Shown here piece by piece: positions 454 to 59,559 of a DNA stretch of 64,000 nucleotides (its first letter is position 1; each line of letters opens with the position of its first letter). The DNA comes from Alphaproteobacteria bacterium. GTDB taxonomy: Bacteria > Pseudomonadota > Alphaproteobacteria > Micavibrionales > SZUA-601. A model generated the notes under the pieces. The model searched no databases and was not told where the DNA came from. It was given only the letters and a program-made list of their open reading frames with translations. The stretch spans positions 1,454,674 through 1,518,673 of the forward strand of contig OZ244156.1 in assembly GCA_965216395.1 (NCBI GenBank), read 5' to 3'. The translations under genes were made by a program, and so were the position numbers.

Positions 454-484
454 TATTGACATATAATATGGATAATATTATGTT
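454..484 (+). promoter_or_regulatory. Extended sigma70-type promoter, TATTGACATA (454-463) + TATGTT (479-484)
   Basis: TTGACA at 456-461, 17-bp spacer, TATGTT; upstream of orphan ORF 535. Confidence 0.6.
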
Positions 485-534
485 GCGTTTAAGTATAATA
501 TGAATCGCAAAAATTGATAAAGGGGAAAAGCGTC

Positions 535-1347
535 ATGGCTCAGGTTCGACCCGTGCTTAAAAAAGCCCATAATTACCAATCAGACATGACAATCCCCAGT
601 GAGAAAATTATCCCATTTTATGATACGGTTAAGCTAAACGCCTTAGGTGTTTCAACAAAAATATTTCAAAATCTTGCTGATGATTTTAAACTTAAGAATA
701 TATCTTCCAAAGCGCCACATAGAAACGCGGCGCTATTTGCTGATACTGTGATTAAAATTTCAATTTTTGAAATTCAATATCATAATTTAATTTACACCGC
801 GCAACCGATTATTGAAATAAATGAAGATGGTCAAAACGCACGAATGAGCACCATGGTCTCATTGAATGAAACCATTGAAGCCAATAAAGGTGATCTAAAA
901 CAGTATAAAGCCAAACAAGAAAAAATCGCTGATTTATGTTGCAATGCAATGGCAGATTTTTACCAAGACATGTTGGAAAAAAATTTTAAATTTGAAGCAG
1001 AAAAAACAAAAGCCTTCAATATTTGGTCGATGGGCGTGAATGATAAAAATTTATTCCATTTAACACGTCAAGAGAATTGGGAAGAACAAACAGATACACA
1101 TAAATATTACGAAAAACTCTATAACCAAAACAAAGCGTTTGTGACATCAATTGACAATCCCAAATTGACCCAAGACCTATATGCATCAGGTGAAACCAAT
1201 CAACCGCTAACCACAAAGGCGATATGGGTGCTTAATCATAAATCAACAACCCAGTTGAATGCTACGGGATTAATCTGTGATCTCCCAGGCGAAAGAAATA
1301 TGGCACAGATAGCCGTAAATCAAATCAGTCCTTTTATCATACGTTGA
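535..1347 (+). CDS. Hypothetical protein, possibly a degenerate methionine synthase reactivation (Met_synt_B12) domain
   Basis: ORF of 270 aa from ATG 535 (AAGGGG SD upstream). By eye, IADLCCNAMADFY resembles MetH LADRLAEAFAEYL and ALFADTVIKI resembles RLFKDANDML. Remote, unverified. Confidence 0.45.
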   Translation: MAQVRPVLKKAHNYQSDMTIPSEKIIPFYDTVKLNALGVSTKIFQNLADDFKLKNISSKAPHRNAALFADTVIKISIFEIQYHNLIYTAQPIIEINEDGQNARMSTMVSLNETIEANKGDLKQYKAKQEKIADLCCNAMADFYQDMLEKNFKFEAEKTKAFNIWSMGVNDKNLFHLTRQENWEEQTDTHKYYEKLYNQNKAFVTSIDNPKLTQDLYASGETNQPLTTKAIWVLNHKSTTQLNATGLICDLPGERNMAQIAVNQISPFIIR

Positions 1348-1357
1348 ATAAAACGCA

Positions 1358-1900
1358 TCACGTCAGATACGCCATATACGCAAAAACACCCGTCACCCAC
1401 AAGGCGCTGAGGCCAAAAATTATAATCGAAGCGCGACCATGTAAAATCGCCTTTTCACGAAACATATTCCCACGACTAGCCAAGGCTTCGTTATATTTGT
1501 AATAAGGGGTACGGTATTTTTTACCATCTTCAAACAAAACAGGTTTTTCTTTTTTGACCGCTTCGTTAAAATAGGCCATGTAATAATCTTCTTTGAAAAA
1601 ATCGAAAATAGCACAGCGAAGAGCGGCAAAAAAGCTGAGCAGAAAACCTAAAATACTTACAACCATCAGATCATCAAAAAATCGATTATACACCACATAA
1701 TCGGCAAAAATATCCGTGCCGAGAAAGGTCATTAAAACAATTACGGCCGTCCCGTTCATTAACGCCATTAATCGGATTAAAAAAAACGCATAATTTGCAA
1801 GATTGCCATTATGGCGCCCCACTTCACGGTCTCTCTCAATTTGAAATTCTTGAAGGATTTTATCATATTCGGGATGTCTTTTCAGTTTTGGTTTGGCCAT
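1358..1900 (-). CDS. Hypothetical membrane protein
   Basis: 180-aa ORF with three hydrophobic segments; no family recognised. Confidence 0.6.
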   Translation of the reverse strand: MAKPKLKRHPEYDKILQEFQIERDREVGRHNGNLANYAFFLIRLMALMNGTAVIVLMTFLGTDIFADYVVYNRFFDDLMVVSILGFLLSFFAALRCAIFDFFKEDYYMAYFNEAVKKEKPVLFEDGKKYRTPYYKYNEALASRGNMFREKAILHGRASIIIFGLSALWVTGVFAYMAYLT

Positions 1901-1952
1901 GTTTAATCCATTCTTTCTTTAATAAAATGATCATTTCCAGTATAACCATCAC

Positions 1953-3008
1953 ATGACTATCAATCCAGATCAAATAAAAGGCAACACGATCAAGGCCGCC
2001 ATCAAAGCCAAAGGGAAAGAGATTGGTTTTGATGATCTTCGCGTTGGGCCACCGCTGGATTTATCCGATAAATTGGATACGTGGTTGGCCAAAGGATATC
2101 ATGGCACCATGGATTGGTTGGCGCGCAATCCAGAAATCCGCGCCAGTGCTAAAGCCATGTGGCCAGAGGTGCAATCAATTATTGCCGTAGGCCTCAATTA
2201 CGGGCCTGATCATAATCCCTTGCCCGAAATGGAGGACACATCATCGGGTTATATTTCTGTTTATGCGCGCGGCGATGATTATCATGATGTATTGAAGAAA
2301 AGACTGAAACAATTGGGGCGCTGGTTAGCGCAAACCTATGAATGTGAACTCAAAGTTTTTGTCGATACGGCGCCGGTGATGGAAAAACCCCATGCCCATG
2401 GTGCGGGTTTAGGATGGCAGGGCAAACACACCAATCTGGTTTCACGTAGCCACGGTTCCTATTTATTTTTAGGCATTATTTACACCACGCTTAAACTCCC
2501 CTTTGACGAGGAAGAAACCGATCATTGTGGGTCATGTCGAAAATGTTTGGATATTTGCCCCACCAAGGCTTTTCCCCAACCCTATGTTTTGGATGCACGC
2601 CGATGTATTTCTTATCTGACCATTGAACATAAGGGCTCCATCCCGATGGAATTCCGTAAAGCCATGGGTAATCGGATTTATGGCTGTGATGATTGCTTGG
2701 CCGTGTGTCCATGGAATAAATTTGCCACCCAAGCGACAGAAGCGAAATTCCATCATCGTGAGAATTTAACCGCCCCGCGTTTAAAAACCCTCGCCCAATT
2801 AGATGATACAAATTTTCGGGCGATGTTTAAAAAATCACCCATCAAACGTATTGGTCGGGATCGTTTTGTCCGTAATGTCTTAATCGCGATTGGCAATAGT
2901 CATGACGCCGATCTGATTCCCGTGGCCACACAATTGACACGAGACCCCAATCCAATCATTGCCGAAACCGCGCACTGGGCGGTAGAGGAATTAAAACAGA
3001 TGGCTTAA
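1953..3008 (+). CDS. queG: tRNA epoxyqueuosine(34) reductase
   Basis: YARGDDYH, FVDTAPVMEK, two Fe-S motifs (CGSCRKCLDICPT; RCISYLTIE...IYGCDDCLAVCPWN). Confidence 0.95.
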   Translation: MTINPDQIKGNTIKAAIKAKGKEIGFDDLRVGPPLDLSDKLDTWLAKGYHGTMDWLARNPEIRASAKAMWPEVQSIIAVGLNYGPDHNPLPEMEDTSSGYISVYARGDDYHDVLKKRLKQLGRWLAQTYECELKVFVDTAPVMEKPHAHGAGLGWQGKHTNLVSRSHGSYLFLGIIYTTLKLPFDEEETDHCGSCRKCLDICPTKAFPQPYVLDARRCISYLTIEHKGSIPMEFRKAMGNRIYGCDDCLAVCPWNKFATQATEAKFHHRENLTAPRLKTLAQLDDTNFRAMFKKSPIKRIGRDRFVRNVLIAIGNSHDADLIPVATQLTRDPNPIIAETAHWAVEELKQMA

Positions 3009-3016
3009 ATTTTTAA

Positions 3017-3047
3017 TATTGACATAACATGTGTAATAAGATAGCAT
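3017..3047 (+). promoter_or_regulatory. Extended sigma70-type promoter, TATTGACATA (3017-3026) + TAGCAT (3042-3047)
   Basis: TTGACA at 3019-3024, 17-bp spacer; upstream of orphan ORF 3081. Confidence 0.6.
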
Positions 3048-3080
3048 GGTCGAAGATTAATAAAATTTTGGAAACTAGAA

Positions 3081-3560
3081 GTGGCACAGCAAGAAGAAAA
3101 AAGATTTAATAGTAAAACCCCCCTTTTAATGCTTGAATTCATAGCAGGTACGAGTATTTGTGTTGGTTTTATTGCTGATCAAAGTTTTAAAGTTCTAAGC
3201 GAATCCTATAATGATAGAGAATTCTATAATACGGTAATACAAAAAGCTGAATTAAAGATTTTAGAATCTGAAGCAAGTATCGAAAATACAAAAAACATAA
3301 ACCTTATTAAATATTACAAAGAAAATATTAGTGTTAGCAAAGAGGTTATAAATATTGCTCAGAACAATATTAATCCACTAACCGACACCTACCATAATAC
3401 AGCCATCTTGACTAGCGTAGCTATTGGTATTGCGATATCTGGGATGCTTCTCAAAGAGTTTAGTGAAAATATCCTTGGTGCTACTGATAAACTCAACAAA
3501 GACGTTGTAAATTTCATTACCGCGCCATTTAGGAAAAAATCTAACACACCAAAACCATAG
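3081..3560 (+). CDS. Hypothetical two-TM/coiled-coil protein ending KSNTPKP; probable paralog of 58835-59494
   Basis: 159-aa AT-rich ORF (GTG start), two hydrophobic segments flanking a charged helical region. Confidence 0.65.
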   Translation: MAQQEEKRFNSKTPLLMLEFIAGTSICVGFIADQSFKVLSESYNDREFYNTVIQKAELKILESEASIENTKNINLIKYYKENISVSKEVINIAQNNINPLTDTYHNTAILTSVAIGIAISGMLLKEFSENILGATDKLNKDVVNFITAPFRKKSNTPKP

Positions 3561-3577
3561 TTTTAAAAACTCTCAAT

Positions 3578-4809: not shown

Positions 4810-4902
4810 GATTTTTATGTCAGTTTATTCAGTCTGATTTAAGTATACGCAAATTCTACCCCATGTAAACAGAATTGTGTACAAAAAGAAGCCGCTTATG
4901 CC

Positions 4903-11146: not shown

Positions 11147-11230
11147 ACATACATAAGCGTGAATTTATAATTGACATAGGAATCATATTTTGACTATATA
11201 ATAGAGGTAAGAAGAAACGCTTACAGACAG

Positions 11231-12049
11231 ATGGACAAAATGGCCGATATCGTGAAAAAGCTTAAAAGTCTCAGTGATGAAGAACACCATTTGATTAAAA
11301 ATGGCCATGGTGAACAATCAGCTGATATTCAGATCATAAAAAACAAGATTAAAGCCGTTAAGAGAAATCATAAAACAAACCAAAGAAGAAAACGCTTAAA
11401 AAAGCGGCGCGAAAAGTCAGAGGATTTTGTCAATCTGGATCAAAACCCAAAAAGAAATATTGATGCATTACAAAGAAAGCATAATGAATTCGATGAATTT
11501 GGCGCGATCATTTTTAAAGTCAACGCTGATGATATTGTTGTTGCCTTTCCTGACTTCAATAAAAAGCTCGTCATTGAAAAATCAAATCAATATAGCTATG
11601 AAGACCTAATCACTGACACGGTTTTTAAATTAGCGGTCAATAAAATCCTTTACAGAAACAGAGTGCAAAAAAACGGCAAAGATTTTATTGAAGAACCCCT
11701 TGAATCGGCAATTCCTGCCTCCAGTTATGATGAAAAATTCCCCAAAATTGATCTCTTCGATTTAGATAATGAATTGGATGATGTTAAACCGCCAATATTT
11801 ACCTTTATTTCAATTAATATTACAGATGTATTTGCGCGCGCCGAAGAAAACACACAACCACTTAAGTATAAAAAAAATATTTGGGATTACACGAATGAAA
11901 CATCTTATCATGATAATCCCAAAGCCTTAAAAATCATCAAGCTTTATGAAGGTCAATGTAATGTTCTGCTCGAAAATATCGTTAAAAAAGAGACTGAGCG
12001 CAAAGCTTTAGAAAAGCACGATATACTCCATTGCAGAGTGGGCGCATAA
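11231..12049 (+). CDS. Hypothetical protein with a HicB-like domain
   Basis: GAIIFKVNADDIVVAFPDF...KDFIEEP resembles the HicB N-terminal domain (YxAIF...GxxxVxFPDL...GEEIPEP); basic N-terminal extension; AATTGACATA at 11169-11178. Confidence 0.5.
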   Translation: MDKMADIVKKLKSLSDEEHHLIKNGHGEQSADIQIIKNKIKAVKRNHKTNQRRKRLKKRREKSEDFVNLDQNPKRNIDALQRKHNEFDEFGAIIFKVNADDIVVAFPDFNKKLVIEKSNQYSYEDLITDTVFKLAVNKILYRNRVQKNGKDFIEEPLESAIPASSYDEKFPKIDLFDLDNELDDVKPPIFTFISINITDVFARAEENTQPLKYKKNIWDYTNETSYHDNPKALKIIKLYEGQCNVLLENIVKKETERKALEKHDILHCRVGA

Positions 12050-14325: not shown

Positions 14326-14919
14326 TTAATTTGGTGTTTTTTGAGATTGTCCACCCACAACAATGCGCGGATTTTCAACCGGATGCGTTCTAAGCAATAA
14401 AACAGAAGTTTTACTTTGCGCCATTTGTGTGTAACGGGTTTCTGAAGATTGCACGGGTAAGATACCCATTGATTTTAAATTGGAACAAAAATTTTGATAT
14501 TGCGTTTGACATATCTGACCAACTGTTTGATAGTTTTGAAAATTTGTTTTATCAGAAAGCGTAAAACGATCCTTTAAATCTTTCACAAGTTGGTTATTGT
14601 ACCGAAAATCATCATTCAGTTCTTGATTAAAAGGGGCGCGTCCTGCATAAGCATCATCATAATTTTTAATAGATAATTTGAGAAGTTCATCTCTTTGATT
14701 GATGGCATATTCTTTAATTTTTTCAACACGCCGCCAAGCCTCTAATTCATAATTGGTTTTGGCAATAATATTCCCCTTTTTATCACGCTCAAACGGATAA
14801 TCCAGAATCCGCGTTCCCTCATAATCATCGGGATGCGCAGGGTGGTCTTTCTTATTAAAACCCAACAAAGATTGCACCGATAAAGCAATATTCCGTATGA
14901 TGTTTTTTCTTAAATTCAT
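14326..14919 (-). CDS. Hypothetical protein
   Basis: 197-aa ORF; ATG lies 6 nt after a TATTGACATA-N15-TATGTT promoter. Confidence 0.65.
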   Translation of the reverse strand: MNLRKNIIRNIALSVQSLLGFNKKDHPAHPDDYEGTRILDYPFERDKKGNIIAKTNYELEAWRRVEKIKEYAINQRDELLKLSIKNYDDAYAGRAPFNQELNDDFRYNNQLVKDLKDRFTLSDKTNFQNYQTVGQICQTQYQNFCSNLKSMGILPVQSSETRYTQMAQSKTSVLLLRTHPVENPRIVVGGQSQKTPN

Positions 14920-14925
14920 GCCATG

Positions 14926-14956
14926 AACATATCACAAACTAAACATTATGTCAATA
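14926..14956 (-). promoter_or_regulatory. Extended promoter, TATTGACATA (14956-14947) + TATGTT (14931-14926)
   Basis: Exact 10-mer on the minus strand, 17-bp spacer. Confidence 0.65.
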
Positions 14957-14986: not shown

Positions 14987-15016
14987 TATTGACATATTAT
15001 AAATAATGATTATGTT
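14987..15016 (+). promoter_or_regulatory. Extended promoter, TATTGACATA (14987-14996) + TATGTT (15011-15016)
   Basis: Exact 10-mer, 16-bp spacer; back-to-back with the minus-strand copy. Confidence 0.6.
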
Positions 15017-15024: not shown

Positions 15025-15922
15025 ATGAGTAACCCAAATATAAATTATCGACCGATTCTCGACCATCCTGATTACCGCATGGGTTTGGAGATGATTCAAG
15101 CCGAGAATTACAAAGATGAGATTTATGTTTATGGTGGGGCGGTTTGTGATTATATCCTCTATCAACAGGGCGTGATCAAGGAATATCAACCGAATGATTT
15201 TGATCTTTTGATCCGCGTGAATGCTGAAGATTTTTCAAAACGGCTTGATCGTTTATATGAAAGTGGTCATTTAAAGCCACTTAAAGAGGGCCAAAAGCCT
15301 TTTCACAATATTGGTAAACATTCAGCTTTTCGAGTTATTTGGCAAAAGGAAGGTCTAAAACCAAAACACATTGATATTAAATGTATTGGGGAAGATAATT
15401 AAAGATTTAGAGAAAAAAGGGTTGTTTAAAAACTTACCCTTCGAACCCGCCTTGGGCAGTGCGGTCATGGAAAAAGTGGTAACCTTAGAAGAAAAGTTAG
15501 GTTTAAAACCACAGCGCGGGACACGTATCTTAAGTGCTTATAATGGAAATAAAGAAACCATCTGCCGTGATACAGTGATCAATAATTTGCAAATTATGAC
15601 AGAATGGCAGAAAGAGACGGAAACGCGCGAAAATAAGCTCAAAAATATGTTCAGAAAACAAAAAGAAAAAGATCAAATTCTGAAAATTGTTGAAGATATA
15701 GATCAAGAACCCGATAACGCTACACTTTTTGAGCTGTATAAAACAAATTGGTGTAATATGAAAGCACAAGATCAGCTCACCTGTTTACTACTTTCAGAGA
15801 CCGTTTATCAAATATTGACCGACTCATCAGATGAAGTAAATTTAGAAAAATTAGTCGTAAAAGAGTATTTTAACGATATCAAAGCACGATCAGATGGCGC
15901 GTCTCTTTTCAACGCACCCTAA
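15025..15922 (+). pseudogene. Class II nucleotidyltransferase (CCA-adding/poly(A) polymerase head)-like gene split by a +1 frameshift near 15390
   Basis: ORF 15019-15402 has YVYGGAVCDYIL...PNDFDLLI. The overlapping ORF 15371-15922 has ETICRDTVINNL (cf. EDxxRRDFTINA). Removing one G from ATTGGGGAAG joins the frames. Confidence 0.55.
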
Positions 15923-18676: not shown

Positions 18677-19801
18677 TCAAAACCCATAGTGTTTCGCCAT
18701 TTGGATATAGGTTTGGGTAAAGTGTTTGATCTCTTCTTGCGTAGTGTTCCACCCAAAAGAACAACGTAGCGCGCCTTTGGCTTGCTCTTGTGTTGCCCCC
18801 ATGGCCTGCAACACATGCGACGGTTTAATCGATCCCGAAGAACAGGCCGCGCCTGAAGAAACCGCAATCCCCGCCAAGTCCAGCGCCATCAATTGTGTCT
18901 CGGCGCGTATACCTGGTAAACTTAGTTGAATTGTATTGGCCACCCGTGGCACCTTTTGGCCATAAATAATGACCGCGGGTACAGCTTTTTGGATGGCCTG
19001 TTCCGCATCTTCACGCCAGGCTTGCATCGCTTGAAATTGCGGTAAATCCTGTACGGCTAATTCTGCTGCATAACCAAAACCGATCATAGCGGGCGCGTTT
19101 TCCGTGCCCGCGCGGCGCCCGCGTTCCTGCCCACCGCCATGGGTCATTTTAGCAAGCATTTTTTCTTTATCATGGTTATAAATCAGCGCCCCTACACCCA
19201 TCGGCCCGCCTAATTTATGCGCCGAAAGGGACAGATAATCTATACCTAATTCTGTCATATCCAGTGACATCCGGCCGGCTGCCTGTACCGCGTCACTATG
19301 TACCCAACAAGACCCATGCGCTTTCGCCAATGCAACAATTTCTTGAATCGGTTGAATAACCCCTGTTTCGTTATTAACCATCATCACACTGATCAACGTG
19401 GGTTGCGGATCCGTTGCCAAAGCTTTTTGTAACCAATCTAAATCCAAAACCCCATCGGGTGTCACCGGGATTAATTCAATATTTTTGACCTCTTGAGCCA
19501 CGTCATAAATACTGGGATGTTCAATGGCGCTGATTAAAATACGTGTGGCGGATGTACCATAAATCACTGTATTATTGGCTTCGGTTGCGCCGGATGTAAA
19601 GGTCACATTAATGGGCGGCGCGTTCACCATGGCCGCGACCTGTTCCCGCGCGCGTTCCACATCTTTGCGCATAGCGCGCCCAAAACCATGGATGGAAGAT
19701 GGATTACCCGTTTGTGAAAGCGCATGGGTCATCACCGCCCGCACGGATGGTTTGACCGGCGCAGTGGCATTATAATCAAGATAAATCGTTTCTTTTGACA
19801 T
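18677..19801 (-). CDS. iscS: Cysteine desulfurase (IscS/NifS class V aminotransferase)
   Basis: YLDYNATAP, GNPSSIH, FTSGATEANN, HSDAVQA, LSAHKLGGPMGVG, SSGAACSSG. Confidence 0.9.
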   Translation of the reverse strand: MSKETIYLDYNATAPVKPSVRAVMTHALSQTGNPSSIHGFGRAMRKDVERAREQVAAMVNAPPINVTFTSGATEANNTVIYGTSATRILISAIEHPSIYDVAQEVKNIELIPVTPDGVLDLDWLQKALATDPQPTLISVMMVNNETGVIQPIQEIVALAKAHGSCWVHSDAVQAAGRMSLDMTELGIDYLSLSAHKLGGPMGVGALIYNHDKEKMLAKMTHGGGQERGRRAGTENAPAMIGFGYAAELAVQDLPQFQAMQAWREDAEQAIQKAVPAVIIYGQKVPRVANTIQLSLPGIRAETQLMALDLAGIAVSSGAACSSGSIKPSHVLQAMGATQEQAKGALRCSFGWNTTQEEIKHFTQTYIQMAKHYGF

Positions 19802-19852
19802 ATTTATAATAATCGTTACACTGTCTTTTCTAACTTAAAGAGAAACTATAAC

Positions 19853-20464
19853 ATGACAGATAGATTTTTCGAAGAAAACAAATATGATATCGCGCGACAC
19901 ACTATTCGTAAAATTGTGCATGAAAAAATATTGGAAATAATAATCGAAGATGCTGAAGAGAAGTACAAGATTATACCTAATGAAGAAAATAAATTTCTGC
20001 TATGCTTTGTCAAAGATATAGTAAGCAATTATATAGCTATCAATGAAGAATTAAACTCTCCCGAAAGAAAAATGATTGAAGATAAAAATGGTGATTTAGA
20101 TGTGATGTTGTCTCAATTTGGACTTACTACTGATTGCGATAAAAAATCAAATAAAACGGAAGATTTTAATTATGGTTTTTCCAACAATTTTTTTATAGAA
20201 AAATTATATGGTGTAGAAGAATATTATGAAGATAGAAATCAGCCTGAAATTGATAAAAAATATGATTTTTATACTGATAATTTAGTCAAAAAATATGGTG
20301 AAAATGCAATATATATCGATGCCATTATTTGTGCTGAAAACTGTCTCCATAATTCACAAACCATAAATGAAAAAGAAATAACTATTTTAAACCAAGCCAA
20401 AGAAGTTTTAACGGCAGAGTTCGGCCAAGCAGATCCGTCGGATTTTCCTGATTACGTGCTTTAA
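19853..20464 (+). CDS. Hypothetical acidic protein
   Basis: 203-aa AT-rich ORF; TTTTGACATA (19793-19802) + TACACT upstream. Confidence 0.65.
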   Translation: MTDRFFEENKYDIARHTIRKIVHEKILEIIIEDAEEKYKIIPNEENKFLLCFVKDIVSNYIAINEELNSPERKMIEDKNGDLDVMLSQFGLTTDCDKKSNKTEDFNYGFSNNFFIEKLYGVEEYYEDRNQPEIDKKYDFYTDNLVKKYGENAIYIDAIICAENCLHNSQTINEKEITILNQAKEVLTAEFGQADPSDFPDYVL

Positions 20465-23571: not shown

Positions 23572-23601
23572 TATTGACATAAAATTATTTTTCTTTATAT
23601 T
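23572..23601 (+). promoter_or_regulatory. Extended promoter, TATTGACATA (23572-23581) + TATATT (23596-23601)
   Basis: Exact 10-mer, 16-bp spacer; upstream of orphan 23631. Confidence 0.55.
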
Positions 23602-23630: not shown

Positions 23631-24005
23631 ATGGGTAGTGTAAAATACGGGGGCGGTTTTGCAGATGGTGAAGAGCCAAAAGAAGATAAAAAAGGTCTTT
23701 TGGATTTCGACGTCATTTTCAAAAAGAAACAAATCCTTATATACGGGGCGATTTTACTTGCTGGACTTTTTAGTGGCTTAGCCATTGGCGACGATATGAA
23801 AAAAAATAAGCAAGATATCGAAAATAATCATATCCGTCATGAAAATAGATTGGCCAAAGTGCATCGGGCGGAGGAAGAACGGCTTCAGCAAAAGATAGAA
23901 GACACCACTGTTTATTTTCAAGAACAATTAAAGATCACAAAACAAAGTCTTGAAGATTGTCAGAATAAACCAATTATTCAAGACGTTAAGCCAATCATCA
24001 ATTAA
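23631..24005 (+). CDS. Hypothetical single-TM coiled-coil protein
   Basis: 124 aa, GGAGG SD, one hydrophobic segment followed by a charged helical region. Confidence 0.7.
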   Translation: MGSVKYGGGFADGEEPKEDKKGLLDFDVIFKKKQILIYGAILLAGLFSGLAIGDDMKKNKQDIENNHIRHENRLAKVHRAEEERLQQKIEDTTVYFQEQLKITKQSLEDCQNKPIIQDVKPIIN

Positions 24006-29741: not shown

Positions 29742-30119
29742 TTATAAACGATTTCGCGATTTTGGAGCTTGAAAACCAAAAATATTGATGATTTTTCGCA
29801 TGCTATTATGTATATCACAACAATTAGTACCAAATTGGTGTTTCGGTTTATCTGTATTACATCCCATAATTTCTTTTTGTTCTTGTAAAAGACTTAATCT
29901 TTCTGGCGCTTCCATTTCTATAGAATTCTGATTTATTTGTGTATGAGGAACCGCGTTCTGCTCTGTTTCTTCACATCTCATCAATACTAATAAAGCAACC
30001 GTCATAGCAATAGGTGTCGCATAAGACATAAATTTATGAAATTTTGACCATGAGCTTAGTAAATAAGCTTTGTTTTCTTCAGGTGTAGCCACAGAATAAG
30101 ACAATGTTTTTTTAGTCAT
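29742..30119 (-). CDS. Hypothetical single-TM protein
   Basis: AT-rich ORF from ATG 30119; ATTTGACATA (30183-30174)-N15-TATCTT promoter upstream. Confidence 0.6.
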   Translation of the reverse strand: MTKKTLSYSVATPEENKAYLLSSWSKFHKFMSYATPIAMTVALLVLMRCEETEQNAVPHTQINQNSIEMEAPERLSLLQEQKEIMGCNTDKPKHQFGTNCCDIHNSMRKIINIFGFQAPKSRNRL

Positions 30120-30261
30120 AACGAATCTCTTTCTTACAAAATCAGTTTGAAAAAGATAACAAAACATTAAACTTATGTCAAATTAAATTTATATATAGAT
30201 AAATGAATTTACACGCTTATCTTTGATAAACGTGTAATAATATCAATAACATCCGTTAAAT

Positions 30262-34187: not shown

Positions 34188-34192
34188 TAAAA

Positions 34193-34223
34193 TATTGACA
34201 TAATTTAATATTCGTCTTATTTA
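34193..34223 (+). promoter_or_regulatory. Extended promoter element TATTGACATA (34193-34202)
   Basis: Exact 10-mer just after the hemH stop; weak -10 (TATTTA) at 17 bp; GNAT ATG at 34231. Confidence 0.5.
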
Positions 34224-34230
34224 TAAAGTT

Positions 34231-34671
34231 ATGAATATCGAATTTAAACCTATTCCTGATCAAGAAATTGCAGAAGCTTTGCAATTGCTAGAAGTTTTTT
34301 CACAAAATGGTGAAAATATAACCATGGATCAAAGAATAGAAGCTTATCAAAAAGCAAAAAAATATAACAGCTATCAACTTTATGGTGGTTATGAAGAAAA
34401 TAAGTTACAAGCGGTTGTTGGGATTCGTCCCGTTCATAATCCAAGTGATTGTCGCTTAATTTTTGAGGCCAATAATCTTGTCGTTGTCGAAGATCAACAA
34501 AAACAAGGCATTGGTAGTTTTATGTTTGAAAAAATCGGCGAACATGTTAAAGACCAGGGCGGTTTCGCATTTAAATTTTTTGTTGCGAATTCTAATTTAG
34601 AACTCGTTGATTTTTATGAAAAACGTGGTGCTGGGCAAGCGGCGTGTCAAATGATGTATCTTAAGGTTTAA
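34231..34671 (+). CDS. GNAT family N-acetyltransferase
   Basis: LVVVEDQQKQGIGSFM motif A, FYEKRG. Confidence 0.85.
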   Translation: MNIEFKPIPDQEIAEALQLLEVFSQNGENITMDQRIEAYQKAKKYNSYQLYGGYEENKLQAVVGIRPVHNPSDCRLIFEANNLVVVEDQQKQGIGSFMFEKIGEHVKDQGGFAFKFFVANSNLELVDFYEKRGAGQAACQMMYLKV

Positions 34672-34677
34672 ACCAAA

Positions 34678-36369: not shown

Positions 36370-36422
36370 AAAATTCAGATTCTTTTTGAAATATCTTTCA
36401 GAATCCTTTATTATACATAATT

Positions 36423-37862
36423 ATGAAATATAAAAATGAATCTGTTATTTATGCCTTAGACCCTAAGAAGACAATCTGCGCTGAGCAGGCGTTCAAAATG
36501 CGTGTGAAAAAGCTGAAAAATGGCAAGAAGCAGTTTAATCTCCACTATTACACTATCAATCCGATCGAAGAAATTGAACAGGATGATGAACAAAACCTAG
36601 GATCGGTTATTGCTTTATTGCAAAGAAAAAGAGGTCATGGCGCCTATGCGAAGGCGATTGAAAAATACGAAGAATCCTATCAGTTTAAGCGCAATCGTGG
36701 ATTGAAAACGATTAATTCTAAAGCGCTGAAAATAACGGGTATATTTAATGAAAACGGCACTTTGATTAATACGGATATCGCCCTCGTGCAAAATTTTAGG
36801 GTTGAAAATATCACCAATGAATCGGTAACAGAGTATTTTTACAAACGCAAACTTCCCTCTCATTTAAAAAATCCGATGTTACTGGGTATGCGTGACTTTG
36901 TTAACGCTTTGGGGCGCAATGTTAAAAACAGCAGTCAATTAACGCAAGTTATCGGTGATGTCATGGCTTTGGTGGTTGGGGCGATTGCGGTGGAAAATCA
37001 GCTCCCCATGCTCTATCGCGAAAAAACAAAGAGAGGTGTTAATCGAACGACAGACCCCGAAGATATCAACCCAGAACAGGTCGAAGTGCGCATTGATGCA
37101 CCCCTAAGAAGTTTTGAAAAAGGGTTTAACTTTGTGCAATTTTACCGCTTTTTAACAGGGGGAGAGCTTCTTTCCACCCTTGTTGTTGAACGTGCCATGT
37201 TGGGTCTTGAAAAAATAAAAGACATCGCTAAAAAAATTAAATTATATAGACGCAGTATTCCCAAACCGATTCCACCTAACCGCGCCAATCACACATTTAA
37301 AAAAATTGGTGTGAACGCCTTTGTGGTCAACCAAATGGATATTTTTGAATTAATAGATGTTCATGCTCAGGCTGCTTTGTCACAAAAACAACTTGTTCAG
37401 CCTTTTTTCGATGCTTTAGAGAAAAAAAGACATGATCAATTTCTTGAAAAAATAAAAGATCAACCGACACAGTTTGAAGGATTATTTCAACGGGTCGCCT
37501 ATTTGGAAAAGGTCAAAGCTGTGGATCATGGTTTTCCACAAGAAAATTACCAAAAATTGTTTGAGACCCAACAAGAAATGATGAAAACTATGCGCGAAAA
37601 GAAAACGTCTGTTAATTATTTTATTGATGGTATTAAAGATGAAAAAATCAATAGCACTGCACTCAAAGGTATCATGGATAAAATGGATTCCAAACATATG
37701 AAGATCTCGGAAACGGTATTATTGCATACCGCGATTGAAGAGAATAAAAAATTATTTAGTAATAAACTCAAAAAGTTAGAGATATTAAATAAATTTCAGG
37801 ATGTTTTGGAAGTCTATAAAGATCAACATCTGGAACGACTTTATCCCGGTCTTAATGCATAA
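36423..37862 (+). CDS. Degenerate RNB domain-like protein, paralog of 35179-36369
   Basis: YALDPKKTICAEQAF, FNLHYYTIN, NSKALKITGIFNENG, LPMLYRE, RIDAPLRSF; helical C-terminal extension. Confidence 0.6.
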   Translation: MKYKNESVIYALDPKKTICAEQAFKMRVKKLKNGKKQFNLHYYTINPIEEIEQDDEQNLGSVIALLQRKRGHGAYAKAIEKYEESYQFKRNRGLKTINSKALKITGIFNENGTLINTDIALVQNFRVENITNESVTEYFYKRKLPSHLKNPMLLGMRDFVNALGRNVKNSSQLTQVIGDVMALVVGAIAVENQLPMLYREKTKRGVNRTTDPEDINPEQVEVRIDAPLRSFEKGFNFVQFYRFLTGGELLSTLVVERAMLGLEKIKDIAKKIKLYRRSIPKPIPPNRANHTFKKIGVNAFVVNQMDIFELIDVHAQAALSQKQLVQPFFDALEKKRHDQFLEKIKDQPTQFEGLFQRVAYLEKVKAVDHGFPQENYQKLFETQQEMMKTMREKKTSVNYFIDGIKDEKINSTALKGIMDKMDSKHMKISETVLLHTAIEENKKLFSNKLKKLEILNKFQDVLEVYKDQHLERLYPGLNA

Positions 37863-39324: not shown

Positions 39325-39984
39325 TTATGCTTTATATGCTCGGACCATAAATCCAAGAGCGTCAATACCTTTTTGAAGATTAGTTTCCTTATTTGAAAAT
39401 ATATCGTTATTGGAACCAAAAAGATCATCATAAGTATTGATATCCATACCATATGTATTTTCAGGCTCCTCTCCTTTGCTTTCAATTTCATATATAATTG
39501 AATCATTTATATCGCATACTAAGTTTTGTTCAAAAAGATCACTGATCTCTACTTCTATATCGGCATCTTTTTCTATAAGAGTGTTTTCTTTTATTGCTAA
39601 ATTAGCATTCTTTATAAAGCTAAGTTGTTTTTCCAAATATTTTTCACCGAAGACACTAACAAGATGATTTAAAATATGAAAACAAAACTCTTCTACCTTT
39701 TCTTTATCAGCCTTTGGTAAATGAATATGAGAAAAATCTTTTGCTGTTTTTGTAAACTTTAAACGATTATAAATATAGGCTATGGATTCTAGAAATTCGG
39801 GGTCATCCTTTACATTCTTGTCATTCGCAAGAAATTCAATCTTCTCGTCACACATAACTATAAGTTTCGAGACATCTCTTACAAAGGATTTGGCTTTATC
39901 TAAAGCGGATAGTTTTGAATCTCTGTTATAAGATTTTTCATTAGAAAGCTGTTCTATTTCTTCTAAGCTTTTTTTTCCAGTCAT
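39325..39984 (-). CDS. Hypothetical protein
   Basis: 219-aa AT-rich ORF convergent on rho. Confidence 0.65.
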   Translation of the reverse strand: MTGKKSLEEIEQLSNEKSYNRDSKLSALDKAKSFVRDVSKLIVMCDEKIEFLANDKNVKDDPEFLESIAYIYNRLKFTKTAKDFSHIHLPKADKEKVEEFCFHILNHLVSVFGEKYLEKQLSFIKNANLAIKENTLIEKDADIEVEISDLFEQNLVCDINDSIIYEIESKGEEPENTYGMDINTYDDLFGSNNDIFSNKETNLQKGIDALGFMVRAYKA

Positions 39985-41687: not shown

Positions 41688-41753
41688 ATTTATTGACAAA
41701 AAGACCTTCCATCAGGTAGATATAAGGCTTGATTGATAAAGGAATCGCTTTAA

Positions 41754-43655
41754 ATGACTTTAAAACAAAATCATTATGATGTGATCGTTGTTGGTGGGGG
41801 CCATGCAGGAACCGAAGCCGCGGCCGCAGCGGCGCGTATGGGGGCAAAAACAGCGTTAATCACGCATGATATAGAAAAAATTGGTGTCATGTCATGCAAT
41901 CCGGCCATTGGTGGCTTGGGTAAGGGGCATTTGGTGCGTGAAATTGATGCGCTGGATGGGGTTATGGGGCGTGCGATTGATCGCGCAGGGATTCAATACC
42001 GAATGCTTAACGCGTCTAAAGGCCCGGCAGTGCGTGGCCCACGCGCGCAGGCAGACCGGGTGCTTTATCGCAATGCGGTTCAAGATATTTTACACGCCTA
42101 TGATGATTATTTAACGCTTTTAAATGGCGCGGTGGATGATTTAATTATCGAGAATGATACCGTTAAAGGCATCGTAACAGCCACAGGTGAAGTTATCCAC
42201 GCCAAATCTGTTGTTTTAACAACCGGCACCTTTTTACGCGGGATTTTACATCGCGGTGAAACCCAAGAAGCAGGGGGCCGTGTGGGTGAAAAACCGGCAA
42301 TTAAAATGGCAGAAACGATTGAAAAAATGGGTTTTCCTATGGGTCGATTAAAAACAGGGACACCACCACGTTTAGACGGGAAGACGATTGCTTGGGATCA
42401 GTGCCAAGAACAACCCGGTGATAACCCACCCCAACCATTTTCTTTTCTTAATAAAGACATATCTGTGCCACAGATCAGTTGTTACATCACATTCACCAAT
42501 AACGATACACACCAAATCATTCGCGATAATATTCACCGTTCGCCCATGTATTCGGGACAGATCGGTTCGGTGGGACCGCGATATTGCCCATCGATTGAGG
42601 ATAAAATTACCCGTTTTGCCGATAAAGATCGTCATCAAATTTTCCTTGAACCCGAAGGGCTTAATGACGACACGGTTTATCCCAATGGTATTTCAACATC
42701 ATTGCCCGTTGATGTCCAAGAAGCTCTTTTAAAAACGATACCGGGTTTAGAAAAGACCGTGATTTTAGAGCCTGGCTATGCGGTTGAATATGATTATGTT
42801 GATCCGCGTGCATTAAAAAACACGCTTGAAACTAAGAAAATTGCACATTTCTTTCTTGCTGGCCAGATTAATGGCACCACAGGTTACGAGGAAGCCGGCG
42901 CCCAAGGCTTAATCGCGGGTATTAATGCTGCTTTACAGGCATTAAATGACAATGTTTCACGTGAAACATTCACGATTGACCGGTCAGAGGGATATATGGG
43001 CGTTTTAGTCGATGATCTGATCACGCGTGGCGCGCCAGAGCCGTACCGTATGTTCACATCAAGGGCGGAATATCGTCTAATCCTGCGTGCCGATAATGCG
43101 GATCAACGTTTAACGCCCCACGGGATTGATATTGGATGCGTGGGTGAAGAACGGGCGCAGATTTTCAAGGCAAAAATGACGAATTTGAACCAAGCGCGCC
43201 AACGTGCAAAAGATTTAAACGAAACCCCAACAGTTTTAGCCAAAAAAGGTTTAAAAATTAATCAAGATGGCGTGCGCCGCACTATTCATGATTTGCTCCG
43301 TTATCCTGACATCACTTTAGCGGATATTATTCGCTTATGGCCAGAGATGGGTGCATTTAACGATGAAATTTTAGAACAAATTGAAATTGATGCGCAATAT
43401 TCTGGTTATATTGAGCGTCAAACAGCCGATATTATTGCGTTTCGCAAGGATGAGGCGTTAAAAATCCCACATGATTTGGATTATAGTCAAATCGGCTCAC
43501 TATCGAATGAGGTTAAGGCAAAGTTAGAAATGGCGCGCCCGGAAACTTTAGGCGCTGCGGCCCGTATTCCAGGTGTGACACCAGCAGCTGTGACATCCTT
43601 ATTGCGCTATGTGCGCCGAGATGGCACAGTGCCTAAAGAAAATCGTGTTTCATAA
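41754..43655 (+). CDS. mnmG: tRNA uridine-5-carboxymethylaminomethyl synthesis enzyme MnmG (GidA)
   Basis: [55 protein letters not shown]. Confidence 0.99.
42953..42968. other. parS site (perfect palindrome) inside mnmG
   Basis: TGTTTCACGTGAAACA. Confidence 0.9.
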
Positions 43656-47043: not shown

Positions 47044-47565
47044 TTATATCGTTAAACCTGTGGGTTGGGTTTTATTAAAAACAAAATCTGTATCAGAATA
47101 AGCTTCTTGTACTGGGTTAAATAGAGCACTATTTTCATTAAGCGCGTGACGCTGTGGCACAGTTTGCCATTGCTTTTTTGCCTCTTCTTTTTCTTTAAGG
47201 TATTTGTTAAGGCCAATGCCAAAACAAATTGCTGTGGCTGTTATCGCTGTAGCGACATAGGCATGATGTCTGCAATTGCGCTGTTGCCTTTCTTTGGAAA
47301 TATCATGATTTTTAAAAAAGTAATGACCTTCTTTTATAGTGCGTATAAACTTGCCAAGCCCAAAACTAGCACCACCTGAAATAATACCCGTACCGATCGC
47401 ATCGGCAACGGGCATATAATTGATCTGATCAGCCAATTCGGGATCATAATCATAAGATAAAACCGCTGGCGCAACAGTTGAGAGAAGGAATAACCCAAAC
47501 GTCCAGGTTGCCTTGCGACTGGGTAAGTAACGATAGCTTAACACATTGTTTTGTCTATGAGACAT
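47044..47565 (-). CDS. Hypothetical membrane protein
   Basis: 173 aa, three hydrophobic segments; ATTTGACATA at 47629-47620. Confidence 0.6.
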   Translation of the reverse strand: MSHRQNNVLSYRYLPSRKATWTFGLFLLSTVAPAVLSYDYDPELADQINYMPVADAIGTGIISGGASFGLGKFIRTIKEGHYFFKNHDISKERQQRNCRHHAYVATAITATAICFGIGLNKYLKEKEEAKKQWQTVPQRHALNENSALFNPVQEAYSDTDFVFNKTQPTGLTI

Positions 47566-47656
47566 TTTTAAAAAACCTTGATCATAATTCGTATAATATT
47601 TTTATGTTTAATATTATACTATGTCAAATGTTTTTGTGATTTTATGGTCGTTTTAA

Positions 47657-49241: not shown

Positions 49242-49251
49242 TATTGACATA
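49242..49251 (+). promoter_or_regulatory. Extended promoter element TATTGACATA
   Basis: Exact 10-mer upstream of orphan 49299. Confidence 0.55.
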
Positions 49252-49298
49252 ATATATGAGCTATCTTAAGTATCAGAGTCATAAAATAAATAGACAAA

Positions 49299-49841
49299 AT
49301 GACCGATAAAACAGAAAACAAGAAAACAAATCGTTTCAGATCCTCTATTGATCGTGTACTGACCGCGCTTTCATACCCGTATTTTAGAGAGAATAAAGAT
49401 GATACGGCTGTTGAAGAAGAACGCTCGACCTCCCTTATGCAGCATGTTGAAGGGGATGGTTTTGCTGATTTATCCTATGAGGATTATCCAGTTTTGATAA
49501 GGGATTATGTTGAGTTGTTTTTTGATATGAGTGAAGAAGAAAAATTAAAAAATCGTTATGATTATAACTCCAAAACATACAACTGTTACGACGCTTTAAT
49601 TGAAAAATTGGATCATGATCTTGCACAAACGGAAGATCCCATTAAAAAAGAGTTTATGGAGGCGTGTCGTTCTGATTGGTTTCAAGATAAATTAGAATTG
49701 CCTGCCAAATTATACGCTATCAATTACGAAGCATGTAATCGATTGATAAATAGTCTTGAGACAGATATCAAAAACCTTAATGTAGTTCTTGATGCGTTGG
49801 ATTATCTATCTGATGTGATAAAAAATTCACCAAAACCTTAG
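49299..49841 (+). CDS. Hypothetical helical protein ending IKNSPKP
   Basis: 180-aa AT-rich ORF. Confidence 0.65.
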   Translation: MTDKTENKKTNRFRSSIDRVLTALSYPYFRENKDDTAVEEERSTSLMQHVEGDGFADLSYEDYPVLIRDYVELFFDMSEEEKLKNRYDYNSKTYNCYDALIEKLDHDLAQTEDPIKKEFMEACRSDWFQDKLELPAKLYAINYEACNRLINSLETDIKNLNVVLDALDYLSDVIKNSPKP

Positions 49842-50278: not shown

Positions 50279-50288
50279 TATTGACATA
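50279..50288 (+). promoter_or_regulatory. Extended promoter element TATTGACATA
   Basis: Exact 10-mer upstream of the lipoprotein trio. Confidence 0.55.
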
Positions 50289-50348
50289 AGGTGAATTTAT
50301 GATTAAAAACAGGAAACGATCATAGAAATAACCAGAGAAATAAGGCAT

Positions 50349-50852
50349 ATGAAAAACAATATTCTTAATCTTTTTACCAAAACGGCCGCGGTCATAATGG
50401 GGGCGTTTGTTATGAATGCGTGTATGACTAATAACAAAAAGAAAACCCAAGATTTAGATATTATAAATATAGAAACCATTAAGGTAAATAAATCAGATAT
50501 TTGGTATTTTGATGCCGTTGGTTACGTAGAAAACGAGTTATATGTCGATTCTCCAATACTTGATCAACTAGAGAAAGAAGACCCCGAAACACGCAATGAT
50601 AGTCTCATTAATCAGCTAATCAGAAATAATATAAAATATGATTTTGCTTATCTGAGATTAAATTTTGAAAAAAACATCGCAAGTATCAGAACCTTCTCAA
50701 ATGATAAATCAGGCGAATTAAAAAAGAATCCTGATCTTAACATTAATTTTGAGATAAAAGATTTATCCGAACAATTTAAAGCGAATGGTCTTGAAACAGC
50801 ACAATTGGCTTATTACACAAGAAAAAAACAAAGAAAAGAAATGGGTTTATAG
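50349..50852 (+). CDS. Putative lipoprotein
   Basis: Basic N-terminus, hydrophobic core, MNA-C lipobox-like site. Confidence 0.7.
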   Translation: MKNNILNLFTKTAAVIMGAFVMNACMTNNKKKTQDLDIINIETIKVNKSDIWYFDAVGYVENELYVDSPILDQLEKEDPETRNDSLINQLIRNNIKYDFAYLRLNFEKNIASIRTFSNDKSGELKKNPDLNINFEIKDLSEQFKANGLETAQLAYYTRKKQRKEMGL

Positions 50853-56047: not shown

Positions 56048-56070
56048 TTTCATAGAACTTAAGAATTTAG

Positions 56071-56097
56071 AAAAAGGACACTTCGGTGTCCTTTTTT
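56071..56097. terminator. Intrinsic terminator with cUUCGg loop after the porin
   Basis: AAAAAGGACAC-TTCG-GTGTCCTTTTTT. Confidence 0.92.
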
Positions 56098-56295: not shown

Positions 56296-57378
<1,083 letters not shown>

Positions 57379-57400
57379 ATAAAGGATATGAACACCCCCC

Positions 57401-58273: not shown

Positions 58274-58285
58274 TATTTTTAAATT

Positions 58286-58816
58286 ATGACGCTTTATCAT
58301 CATAAACCAAGTTTGCGCGATATTCTTTGGGGATTGGTTCCCTTTATGGTGATGCTTGGCTTTATTTTTCTTTCAATGGTGATTAAACAACTGCCGATGC
58401 GTATGATTTATGCGCCTTTACCAATTATCCCGCTGTTTTATTGGGCCGTGTTTCGATCCAATGCGCTTTCTCTGGGGGCGGTTTTTATCATTGGTCTGAT
58501 CCTTGATTTTCTATCCGGTGTGCCGATTGGTGCACATGCTTTTATTTATGTTTTAGTCTTTTTTATGAGCAAAAACCAACGTCGCTTTTTAACCGGCCAA
58601 GGTTTTCTTATGATGTGGGTCTATTTTTTATGTATTTGTTTGGGTCATCAAATTTTATTATGGCTGGGTTACTTAATGTTTCATCCCGTTATTGATGAAT
58701 TATGGCTGCATCTTATGATCAGTGGCGCGGTCACGGCCGCTTTATTGCCGATCTTTTTCCCACTTTTAACGCGGATTAATATCCGCCTTGATCGCGCTGA
58801 GGCAGAAACATTTTAA
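58286..58816 (+). CDS. mreD: Rod shape-determining protein MreD
   Basis: Hydrophobic; FYWAVFR, GLILDFLSGVPIG; follows mreC. Confidence 0.88.
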   Translation: MTLYHHKPSLRDILWGLVPFMVMLGFIFLSMVIKQLPMRMIYAPLPIIPLFYWAVFRSNALSLGAVFIIGLILDFLSGVPIGAHAFIYVLVFFMSKNQRRFLTGQGFLMMWVYFLCICLGHQILLWLGYLMFHPVIDELWLHLMISGAVTAALLPIFFPLLTRINIRLDRAEAETF

Positions 58817-58834
58817 TGACAGGTAATTAGAAGC

Positions 58835-59494
58835 TTAAGCTTTTGGGCCGTTGTTTTTATTAGAGATACCAAGGAGCTGTTTTGTTTTATCGGCACAAAT
58901 TTCTGGAAAATTCTCATGAAAGTTATTGTATCTTTGGTTATCTCTAAGAAGGACTATCATAAATGGTAAAATAAGTGCACCAAAGAGCCCCATAGTTTTT
59001 TCGTATCCTTTATTTGGTTCGCTATTAGGGTCATATTCTTTTTCTTTGATTTCCACTATTTCTTCTTCATGATATTTTATCATATTTTTGTGATGTTCAA
59101 TTGTATTTTCGTATAGGTCTTTTTTTGTGACAGGCTTTAAACCTCGGTCAGGGTCCTTAAGTGTGACTTTTTCACCATTATAGTAAAAATCAATATGTTT
59201 ATTCTTTTTATCCGCATGCACGATTTCTAAAGTATCAGTCGGATTGACATAGCGTTTATTATTAAGTCTATCTTCAAGATATCCTATATTCCACTCAGAT
59301 TCTGCAATTTCCCAGCGTATATCTTTGATTTCATTTTTTTTACCCGTTTCAAAATCCGCTGTTACATAGGCTCTGGAGCCATATTTACCAAGCGCAAAGC
59401 CAGTAATTGCAATAAGGCTAAAATATGTTACGCGATAAAAATTTCCCAAGGCTGTACGTTTTTTCTGTTCTTCTTCTTTCGGCTTTTCTTCCAT
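58835..59494 (-). CDS. Hypothetical two-TM/coiled-coil protein ending NNGPKA, antisense between mreD and mrdA
   Basis: AT-rich ORF; start placed at ATG 59494 because ATG 59533 lies within the -10 element. Confidence 0.65.
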   Translation of the reverse strand: MEEKPKEEEQKKRTALGNFYRVTYFSLIAITGFALGKYGSRAYVTADFETGKKNEIKDIRWEIAESEWNIGYLEDRLNNKRYVNPTDTLEIVHADKKNKHIDFYYNGEKVTLKDPDRGLKPVTKKDLYENTIEHHKNMIKYHEEEIVEIKEKEYDPNSEPNKGYEKTMGLFGALILPFMIVLLRDNQRYNNFHENFPEICADKTKQLLGISNKNNGPKA

Positions 59495-59528
59495 GATGTC
59501 TGACCTTATTGTTTTATAATAAAAATAA

Positions 59529-59559
59529 AACATACCACCAATAAATAGTTATGTCAATA
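59529..59559 (-). promoter_or_regulatory. Extended promoter, TATTGACATA (59559-59550) + TATGTT (59534-59529)
   Basis: Exact 10-mer, 17-bp spacer. Confidence 0.65.

Follow-up and report, generated by a model that had tools for sequence, protein, structure and literature searches.

In the 64,000-nucleotide window analysed here (bases 1,454,674-1,518,673 of one 1.65-Mb contig, OZ244156.1, 38.9% GC, from an alphaproteobacterium of the order Micavibrionales), orphan and accessory genes carry the same short box directly upstream. Its functional core is the 8-mer TTGACATA, often seen as TATTGACATAAT and in its fullest form as aaaTATTGACATAAT. An earlier note on this DNA had claimed that the orphans of the region share an extended promoter without counterpart in core genes, and this central claim stands and extends to about 80 genes of the genome and to the whole order. 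Given the oriented gene and the -10 hexamer in place behind it, the box reads as the -35 element of a sigma70-type promoter. The explanation that we favour, and to which we give an even chance, is that the box marks a lineage-specific, high-information class of RpoD promoters that serves new or fast-evolving genes as a self-sufficient expression signal.

The starting point was the 10-mer TATTGACATA, of which the earlier note had listed nine exact copies in the window. All nine are found at the coordinates and on the strands given, and its estimate of well under one chance copy is confirmed by 100 dinucleotide-preserving shuffles of the window, with 0.16 copies expected and nine reached in none of the 100. 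The four near copies at 11169(+), 19793(+), 30174(-) and 47620(-) are equally real, and the 8-mer TTGACATA is common to all of them. The genome-wide count that the note had proposed was carried out with the reversed, non-complemented sequence as control and with genes called by our own simple script based on open reading frames (ORFs) and codon usage (1,660 genes, 90.6% coding). It gives 40 copies of TATTGACATA against 2 in the control, and 37 of the 40 are intergenic, directly 5' of a gene and oriented toward it.

Upstream regions of the genome hold 151 TTGACA hexamers, about 80 of which are TTGACATA (82 sites, 81 genes), and it is the 3' TA extension that sets the box apart among them. In the 548 non-divergent upstream regions the 8-mer occurs 52 times forward and 4 times in reverse, with 2.6 expected, which amounts to a 20-fold enrichment and an orientation bias of 13:1; the corresponding figures for TTGACA as such are 90, 18 and 22. 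All 24 one-mismatch variants of TTGACATA remain near chance level in these regions. The 12-mer TATTGACATAAT has 18 copies against 0.08 expected, and changes are tolerated at its four outer positions only. In the 3' flank of TTGACA, the base at +1 is T 2.7 times as often as A and the base at +2 is A 4.5 times as often as T, with equal backgrounds of the two bases. The logo of the 82 sites consists of an a/t-rich stretch, T at -2, A at -1 (56/82), TTGACATA and A at +9 (57/82), the two bases 5' of the 8-mer being TA in 37 sites, AA in nine, TG and CA in eight each and AT in seven. When the TTGACA sites are sorted by their number of flank matches, from 0 to 4, the observed counts are 13, 27, 35, 39 and 37, as opposed to 3.5, 22.9, 53.3, 52.6 and 18.7 expected under independence (chi-square 53.8). 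The matches are over-dispersed and thus indicate a mixture of two promoter classes. The GC content of the genes behind the hexamer is about 34% with three or four flank matches and 38.5-39% with none to two.

The architecture behind the box is that of a sigma70-type promoter. The spacer 3' of TTGACA measures 17 bp in 49 of the 82 sites and 16 or 18 bp in 33, and a -10 hexamer of the form TAnnnT is present in 36 sites, compared with 6-20 at shifted control positions. With the best of the three spacers, T occupies the first position of the -10 in 73 sites and A the second in 75, whereas the exact TTGACA in 82/82 sites is what defines the class. Both TG at -15/-14 (G at -14 in 30/82) and A at the predicted +1 (40/82) are enriched, an A-rich stretch lies just 5' of the box, and no GC-rich discriminator is seen. 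Measured from the first T of TTGACA, start-codon distances show two modes. At 35-36 nt there are eight genes whose ATG coincides with the predicted transcription start site (TSS), which would make them leaderless, and a Shine-Dalgarno match is found in one of the eight; the second mode, mainly 52-79 nt, would leave leaders of about 20-40 nt, with a Shine-Dalgarno match in 60% of the genes. The leaderless subclass lends independent support to the predicted start site. The orientation reported by the earlier note is also correct, as every intergenic copy in the window faces an ORF that starts 35-79 nt from the first T of TTGACA.

Inside genes the box is avoided. TTGACATA occurs there 7 times in sense, with 26-42 expected, and 19 times in antisense, with 38-56 expected, a 2-6-fold depletion, and among the 16 dinucleotide 3' extensions of intragenic TTGACA, TA is the most depleted one (ratio 0.48). 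From this avoidance it appears that the cell machinery recognises TTGACATA beyond TTGACA alone, and avoidance in coding sequence points to the box being a potent signal. Two intragenic copies in the window had been missed by the earlier note, at 14506(+) and 59244(+); they are the only ones there, and each lies antisense within a box-driven orphan (14326-14919 and 58835-59494, respectively). C directly 5' of intragenic TTGACA is depleted about two-fold as well (ratios 0.45-0.70), and both the 'core' and the 'orphan' style of -35 seem to be avoided in coding sequence.

Stable-RNA promoters are of another style. CTTGAC, CTTGCA or CTTGAA stands at the rRNA promoter and at most tRNA promoters, no stable-RNA promoter contains TTGACATA, and that of the rRNA has a GC-rich discriminator. 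The -35 boxes with other flanks that the earlier note had assigned to conserved genes (at 4902, 9329, 22414, 37871 and 54854) are present in the sequence, and the extended box represents a discrete promoter class that is specific to orphan and accessory genes, unlike the promoters of conserved genes. A further near copy that the note had overlooked, TATTGACAAA at 41691-41700, lies 63 nt 5' of the conserved mnmG-like gene 41754-43655; in this core gene promoter the 5' flank of the box is present and the TA extension is absent.

The genes behind the box are short, AT-rich and nearly devoid of known domains. Those behind the exact 10-mer have a median length of about 170 aa, compared with 248 aa for the genome, and a mean GC content of 33.8% versus 39.0% (p = 6e-13). 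A Pfam domain above threshold was found in three of the 38 box genes examined (GNAT, M29 peptidase and PcfJ) and in 17 of 20 length-matched control genes with their own upstream region and no box (Fisher p = 5e-9). Homologue searches were made for nine window genes and for 15 genes of a relative from another family (G010). With the nine window box proteins as a concatenated query, all nine were recovered in their own genome and none of the nine in the 30 relatives, one of which is the same-genus genome. As a control, nine other window genes were concatenated, and five of them proved to be conserved across the whole order; among the four without a match three are orphan-like, and two of these three are in fact box-driven. 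The 270-aa protein encoded at 535-1347 matched no relative among 5.8 billion proteins, only itself.

In a BLASTP comparison the 81 box proteins are mutually unrelated, with the exception of one paralogous pair, and paralogy as the source of the promoter similarity is thereby ruled out. They are hydrophilic and rich in K, N and E, and membrane proteins make up 14% of them compared with 32% otherwise. Their genes show no strand bias (39/81 on the leading strand). A crude detector placed a terminator-like hairpin 3' of 13/81 box genes (16%) and of 11% of the others, figures that give no support for a terminator within the module. Only three proteins of the genome end in N-x-P-K-[PA] (3081-3560, 49299-49841 and 58835-59494), all of them box-driven and all in the window, and no C-terminal motif general to the class was found. 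A fourth box-driven protein, M29-like and with its gene start at genome position 819,597, ends in FPKP. Elsewhere in the genome, an overlapping tandem duplication of the box, TATTGACATATTGACATA, lies at 701841-701858, 5' of a 94-aa orphan, and a second, similar box-carrying orphan of 100 aa has its gene start nearby, at genome position 700,664.

Box genes are not spread evenly over low-GC DNA. The replication origin lies at about window position 31,300 according to GC skew, and near it (1.40-1.65 Mb) 27 of the 54 low-GC genes with their own upstream region carry the box, as do 17/39 at 0.8-1.0 Mb and 16/164 elsewhere; low-GC bins at 1.05-1.15 Mb contain no box and the bin at 1.30 Mb contains two. 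Low GC alone is not predictive of the box. The earlier note had named AT-rich composition as an outcome that would overturn its reading, and this did not materialise, with other low-GC islands lacking the box and the box being enriched in a relative with 50% GC in its sampled 40 kb. A 219-aa orphan at 39325-39984 (-), with 30% GC and in a place where the same-genus genome has a 53-nt spacer between conserved genes, has no TTGACATA, so that not all near-origin orphans use the box.

Enrichment of the 10-mer is widespread in the order. The comparison covered 30 relatives from the order and, as an outgroup, 70 genomes from other families of the class. In most of the 30 the 10-mer clearly exceeds its reversed control (e.g., 34/0, 24/3, 22/1, 23/6, 20/2 and 18/1), while 6 copies versus 1 are counted in the same-genus genome, a smaller one of higher GC. 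Copy numbers in the order extend from about 0 (G018, G029) to 34-40 (G010, G000). Among the 70 outgroup genomes, many of them small, counts are mostly 0-6 and near the control, with few clear exceptions (18 vs 3, 11 vs 3). Hence the enrichment is order-specific, and sigma70 promoters or small genomes in general do not share it. A same-family genome, sampled over 40 kb at 50% GC, is enriched in the 10-mer as well, and its syntenic origin region has two TTGACATA sites, 48 and 61 nt 5' of ORFs. The layout recurs at 20 fetched sites of G010, where a TAnnnT -10 follows the box after about 17 bp and the ATG lies 37-39 or 49-64 nt past the first base of the 10-mer. Of the 15 ORFs downstream, 14 are without homologue in 24 relatives and the other is multicopy in another genome. 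One leaderless box-driven gene of G010, L007 (G010:C4:20441-21058), is present about 16 times in G027 and once in G011, and is possibly the transposase of an insertion sequence (IS)-like element that bears a box promoter.

Of the roughly 50 contigs of the same-genus genome, four with about 180 kb were compared, and this comparison places several box genes in small insertions. Positions 34188-34677, comprising a promoter and a GNAT gene, form a precise 490-nt insertion at a 53-nt spacer of that genome; 58835-59494 sits where it has a 110-nt spacer; and a 2-kb insert contains the box gene at genome position 1,166,293. The counterpart of the 23572 site in the same-genus genome is occupied by a different ORF, of 44 aa, behind gTTGACATAaa; the predicted promoter is kept there and the protein is unrecognisable. 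Own promoter and single ORF between neighbours that are adjacent in the relative is the arrangement at 23631, 34231, 58835 and genome position 1166293, and box modules adjoin housekeeping genes such as rho, mnmE, mnmG and parAB. The earlier note had set a co-regulated programme against unrelated horizontal acquisitions, and this contrast was drawn too sharply: what the orphans share is an expression signal, and the genes themselves are mutually unrelated and occur as species-specific small insertions.

Within the window, the -10 hexamers given by the earlier note are in place, with TATGTT 15 nt past the 10-mer at 454, 14947 and 59550 and 14 nt past it at 14987, and with TAGCAT, TATATT and TATCTT at 3017, 23572 and 30174, respectively. 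The first predicted promoter, 454..484 (+), consists of TATTGACATA, a 17-bp spacer and TATGTT, with a predicted TSS at about 491, and precedes the 270-aa ORFan at 535..1347 (+), which has no Pfam domain and no match in the 30 relatives. At 3017..3047 (+), TATTGACATA is followed by a 17-bp spacer and TAGCAT, ahead of a 159-aa orphan (3081..3560, +) with the C-terminus ...SNTPKP. The variant AATTGACATA at 11169..11200 (+), with an 18-bp spacer and TATATA, precedes a 269-aa gene of 34% GC (11240..12049, +) that is the first of three in tandem.

Two boxes stand back to back, 30 nt apart, at 14947(-) and 14987(+), and would drive a divergent gene pair of which both members are apparently leaderless. 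On the minus strand, the promoter 14926..14956 has TATTGACATA, a 17-bp spacer and TGa-TATGTT, and its predicted TSS at 14919 is the A of the ATG of a 197-aa orphan (14326..14919) that would have no leader. On the plus strand, 14987..15016 has TATTGACATA, a 16-bp spacer and TATGTT; the predicted TSS is at about 15023 and the ATG at 15025, again a leaderless arrangement. The 125-aa ORF behind it (15025..15402, +) probably continues by a frameshift into 15467-15922, a segment without homologue in the relatives.

The variant TTTTGACATA at 19793..19822 (+), with a 16-bp spacer and TACACT, precedes a 203-aa orphan of 29% GC (19853..20464, +) that has no match in the 30 relatives. At 23572..23601 (+), TATTGACATA comes right after a terminator-like hairpin and is followed by a 16-bp spacer and TATATT, and the gene behind it (23631..24005, +) is a 124-aa orphan with one hydrophobic segment. 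The variant ATTTGACATA occurs twice on the minus strand, each time with a 17-bp spacer. At 30153..30183 its predicted -10 is TATCTT and the gene (29742..30119, -; 125 aa, 32% GC) has no match in the syntenic contig of the same-genus genome; at 47599..47629 the -10 is TAAAAA, and a 173-aa gene (47044..47565, -) lies behind this 47620 promoter.

The promoter at 34193..34223 (+) has TATTGACATAAT, a 17-bp spacer and TATTTA, with a predicted TSS at 34230 and the ATG of the 146-aa GNAT acetyltransferase gene (34231..34671, +) at 34231, so that this gene also appears leaderless. Further downstream, two low-GC genes at 35179-37862 (396 and 454 aa) lie between a conserved 148-aa gene and a conserved gene at 38042, where the same-genus genome has a 282-nt spacer; they could be co-transcribed from the 34193 box. 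TATTGACATAAT recurs at 49242..49271 (+) with a weak and ambiguous -10 (TTAAGT or TAAGTA), followed by a 180-aa orphan (49299..49841, +) ending in ...KNSPKP. At 50279..50309 (+), TATTGACATA, a 17-bp spacer and TAAAAA precede a 167-aa orphan of 30% GC with a hydrophobic N-terminus (50349..50852, +). The last promoter, 59529..59559 (-), has TATTGACATA, a 17-bp spacer and TATGTT, and its gene (58835..59494, -) is a 219-aa orphan with the C-terminus ...NNGPKA. An Rfam scan of the window found no RNA family.

As to the reader of the box, a whole-genome search with Sigma70_r2 returned three sigma genes, encoding RpoD (661 aa) and two small extracytoplasmic function (ECF) sigmas as classified with NCBIfam. 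No RpoH-like match was obtained with Sigma70_r2, an unusual result given that this alphaproteobacterium has flagellar genes. Among solved RpoD chains, 7ye1_F gives the best alignment to regions 2-4 of the RpoD found here (E = 7e-143); region 4.2, the helix-turn-helix that reads the -35, is identical to that of 7ye1_F and has four differences from the next-best solved RpoD, 7xya_F. With a -35 and -10 of sigma70 type rather than ECF type and a canonical RpoD, RpoD is the simplest reader. The special sigma factor that the earlier note had considered finds no support in this repertoire of RpoD and two ECF sigmas, in the sigma70-type -10 or in the canonical region 4.2. MucR/Ros is an alphaproteobacterial silencer of AT-rich DNA; it is absent from the genome, which rules out MucR-type silencing. 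No dyad, no direct repeat and no second half-site 10-11 bp to either side of the box was found, and DnaA, CtrA, Fur, pho/PmrA and LexA-type boxes, compared by eye, do not fit. Literature searches for TATTGACATA and TTGACATA returned incidental occurrences only, nothing bearing on -35 flanks.

The favoured reading, an RpoD promoter class, would work as follows. RpoD region 4.2 would bind the perfect TTGACA, and the TA(A) step just 3' and the A just 5' would add recognition, either via RNA polymerase contacts or via DNA shape. A degenerate TAnnnT -10, often preceded by TG, would follow 17±1 bp further on, and transcription would start about 35 nt past the first T of TTGACA. Since the box alone carries about 14-15 bits, it could specify a promoter without an activator and work as a self-contained signal. 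The modules would be compact and mostly single-gene, made up of promoter, a leader of 20-40 nt or none, and ORF, and would represent young or fast-evolving orphans that are inserted as small units between conserved genes, for the most part close to the replication origin. This scheme builds on the directly observed motif statistics, architecture, orphan association, order-wide conservation, intragenic avoidance and sigma repertoire; from these we infer that RpoD alone suffices and that box genes share an expression behaviour different from that of core genes. The box promoters pair a perfect -35 with a weak -10 and lack a GC-rich discriminator, and would therefore be alike under global polymerase-level control and unlike stable-RNA promoters. 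Several points weigh against the scheme. Degeneracy is usual in -35 elements, but the box is all-or-none; small genomes elsewhere in the class are unenriched, although RpoD region 4.2 here is identical to that of 7ye1_F; and the tRNA and rRNA promoters of the same cell use CTTGAC or CTTGCA. In addition, the gene set comes from a crude home-made ORF caller, promoters and start sites are predicted from sequence, and the runs that contain this genome, on contigs >100 kb, are DNA metagenomes only.

The main rival, which we consider possible though less probable, is a composite site at which RpoD reads TTGACA and a lineage-specific DNA-binding partner reads the flanks of TATTGACATAAT, in which case the roughly 80 orphans would form a true regulon. 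Such a partner might be an activator, a repressor or an anti-silencer, possibly serving a host-interaction or secretion-substrate programme. An all-or-none motif with strong base-specific flank preferences would fit a composite site, as would the over-dispersed flank matches with their two promoter classes, the class-specific and regional distribution that leaves other low-GC islands nearly boxless, and an enrichment that is order-specific despite a canonical RpoD reading head. However, the conserved core falls exactly on the sigma70 -35 hexamer and keeps the canonical distance from the -10, there is neither a dyad or direct repeat nor a second half-site 10-11 bp away, conservation of the +9 base that follows the 8-mer does not extend to the other family examined, and no candidate factor was found, MucR/Ros being absent. 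The secretion side of this rival draws on a row of genes at genome positions 1160224-1162750 that encode a DotB-like type IVB ATPase (E = 1e-115), an unassigned 291-aa protein and a DotD-like lipoprotein (E = 3e-30), both named matches falling short of the NCBIfam equivalog cut-offs. In the order, 31/31 genomes carry a DotB-like gene, which makes an effector programme conceivable by analogy, and the hydrophilic, K/N/E-rich and seldom membrane-bound box proteins would suit it; the dotB/dotD-like genes themselves, on the other hand, carry no box. That the box is the cis signature of a dedicated order-wide regulon, in which a putative factor together with RpoD would drive a fast-evolving host-interaction or secreted repertoire, is a reading that we regard as rather unlikely.

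Shared ancestry in place of selection, by descent of one mobile cassette of promoter and gene or through a phage or plasmid pool of the order (moron-like insertions), appears improbable to us. The precise small insertions between neighbours that are conserved in the same-genus genome would agree with it, as would the leaderless box gene of G010 that is multicopy elsewhere and has an IS-like look. Yet spacers, leaders and upstream flanks show no similarity outside the box, and descent from a mobile cassette is unlikely because only the box is shared; moreover, the 81 proteins are mutually unrelated but for the one pair, no integrase, repeats or target duplications occur at the insertion points examined, terminator-like hairpins follow only 16% of box genes and 11% of the rest, and clearly mobile and defence islands lack the box. 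Reading by one of the two ECF sigmas instead of RpoD is less probable still and would be a surprise. Two such genes exist and ECF promoters are typically sharp and of high information, but the -35 here is the TTGACA within TTGACATA and not of the AAC type, the -10 is TAnnnT/TGn and not CGT-like, and neither ECF gene has an upstream box. An artefact of chance or of AT-rich intergenic composition can for practical purposes be set aside: intergenic DNA is indeed 68% A+T, and a generic sigma70 consensus scan does not separate box sites from background (74 matches in 20 kb vs 60 when shuffled), but the 20-fold and more than 25-fold enrichments of the 8-mer and the 10-mer, the orientation bias, the near-zero reversed controls and the enrichment in the relative with the 50%-GC 40-kb sample all speak against it.

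Comparison with known systems helps to place the class. The canonical sigma70 promoter is TTGACA-N17-TATAAT with an optional TGn extended -10 and an A/T-rich UP element, and the lambda PL promoter also reads TTGACATAAAT. The box promoters resemble it in the -35, the 16-18-bp spacer with its mode at 17, the TAnnnT hexamer, TG in about one third of the sites, the A-rich upstream stretch and the canonical region 4.2, but differ in an invariant -35 that is extended by a 3' TA(A) and a 5' A, in the lack of enrichment of one-mismatch variants and in the limitation of the class to orphan genes and to one order of the class Alphaproteobacteria. The alphaproteobacterial housekeeping consensus described for Sinorhizobium meliloti is CTTGAC-N17-CTATAT. 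The tRNA and rRNA promoters of the present genome, with CTTGAC or CTTGCA, are of this type, and cTTGACA is avoided in its genes, whereas in the orphan class TTGACA is preceded by A instead of C and followed by TA, and a GC-rich discriminator is lacking.

A further parallel is the PmrA box of Dot/Icm effector genes in Legionella pneumophila and Coxiella burnetii, tandem cTTAATatT repeats 5' of the -10 that are bound by a response regulator, take the place of the -35 and have been used to predict effectors. Here too, one cis element stands before many unrelated, lineage-specific hydrophilic proteins in a genome with putative type IVB secretion genes, but this is a single box identical to the -35, without a tandem repeat at about 11 bp. 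Phage morons are units of promoter, ORF and terminator inserted between conserved genes, and short AT-rich ORFans are well known. The box modules share with them the self-contained promoter-ORF unit, the small size, the AT-richness, the lack of homologues and the precise insertion between conserved neighbours; they differ in being chromosomal and called non-prophage (no search for phage genes was made), in terminators that are mostly undetected and in the one sharp promoter, conserved across the order, that all units share.

Every bacterial genome contains a large and unexplained fraction of orphan genes, and the way in which such genes gain expression is an open question. In the genome studied here about 5% of the genes share one high-information box, which is kept across the order while the genes behind it turn over, and this offers a concrete and testable model of a plug-in promoter for new genes. 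It is also a clean system in which to ask whether -35 flanks are read by RNA polymerase itself or by a partner. We contend that the box provides a simple sequence rule for listing the accessory, and possibly host-directed, repertoire of an uncultured lineage; if the regulon reading is true, it would predict this repertoire genome by genome, as the PmrA box did for the effectors of Legionella and Coxiella.

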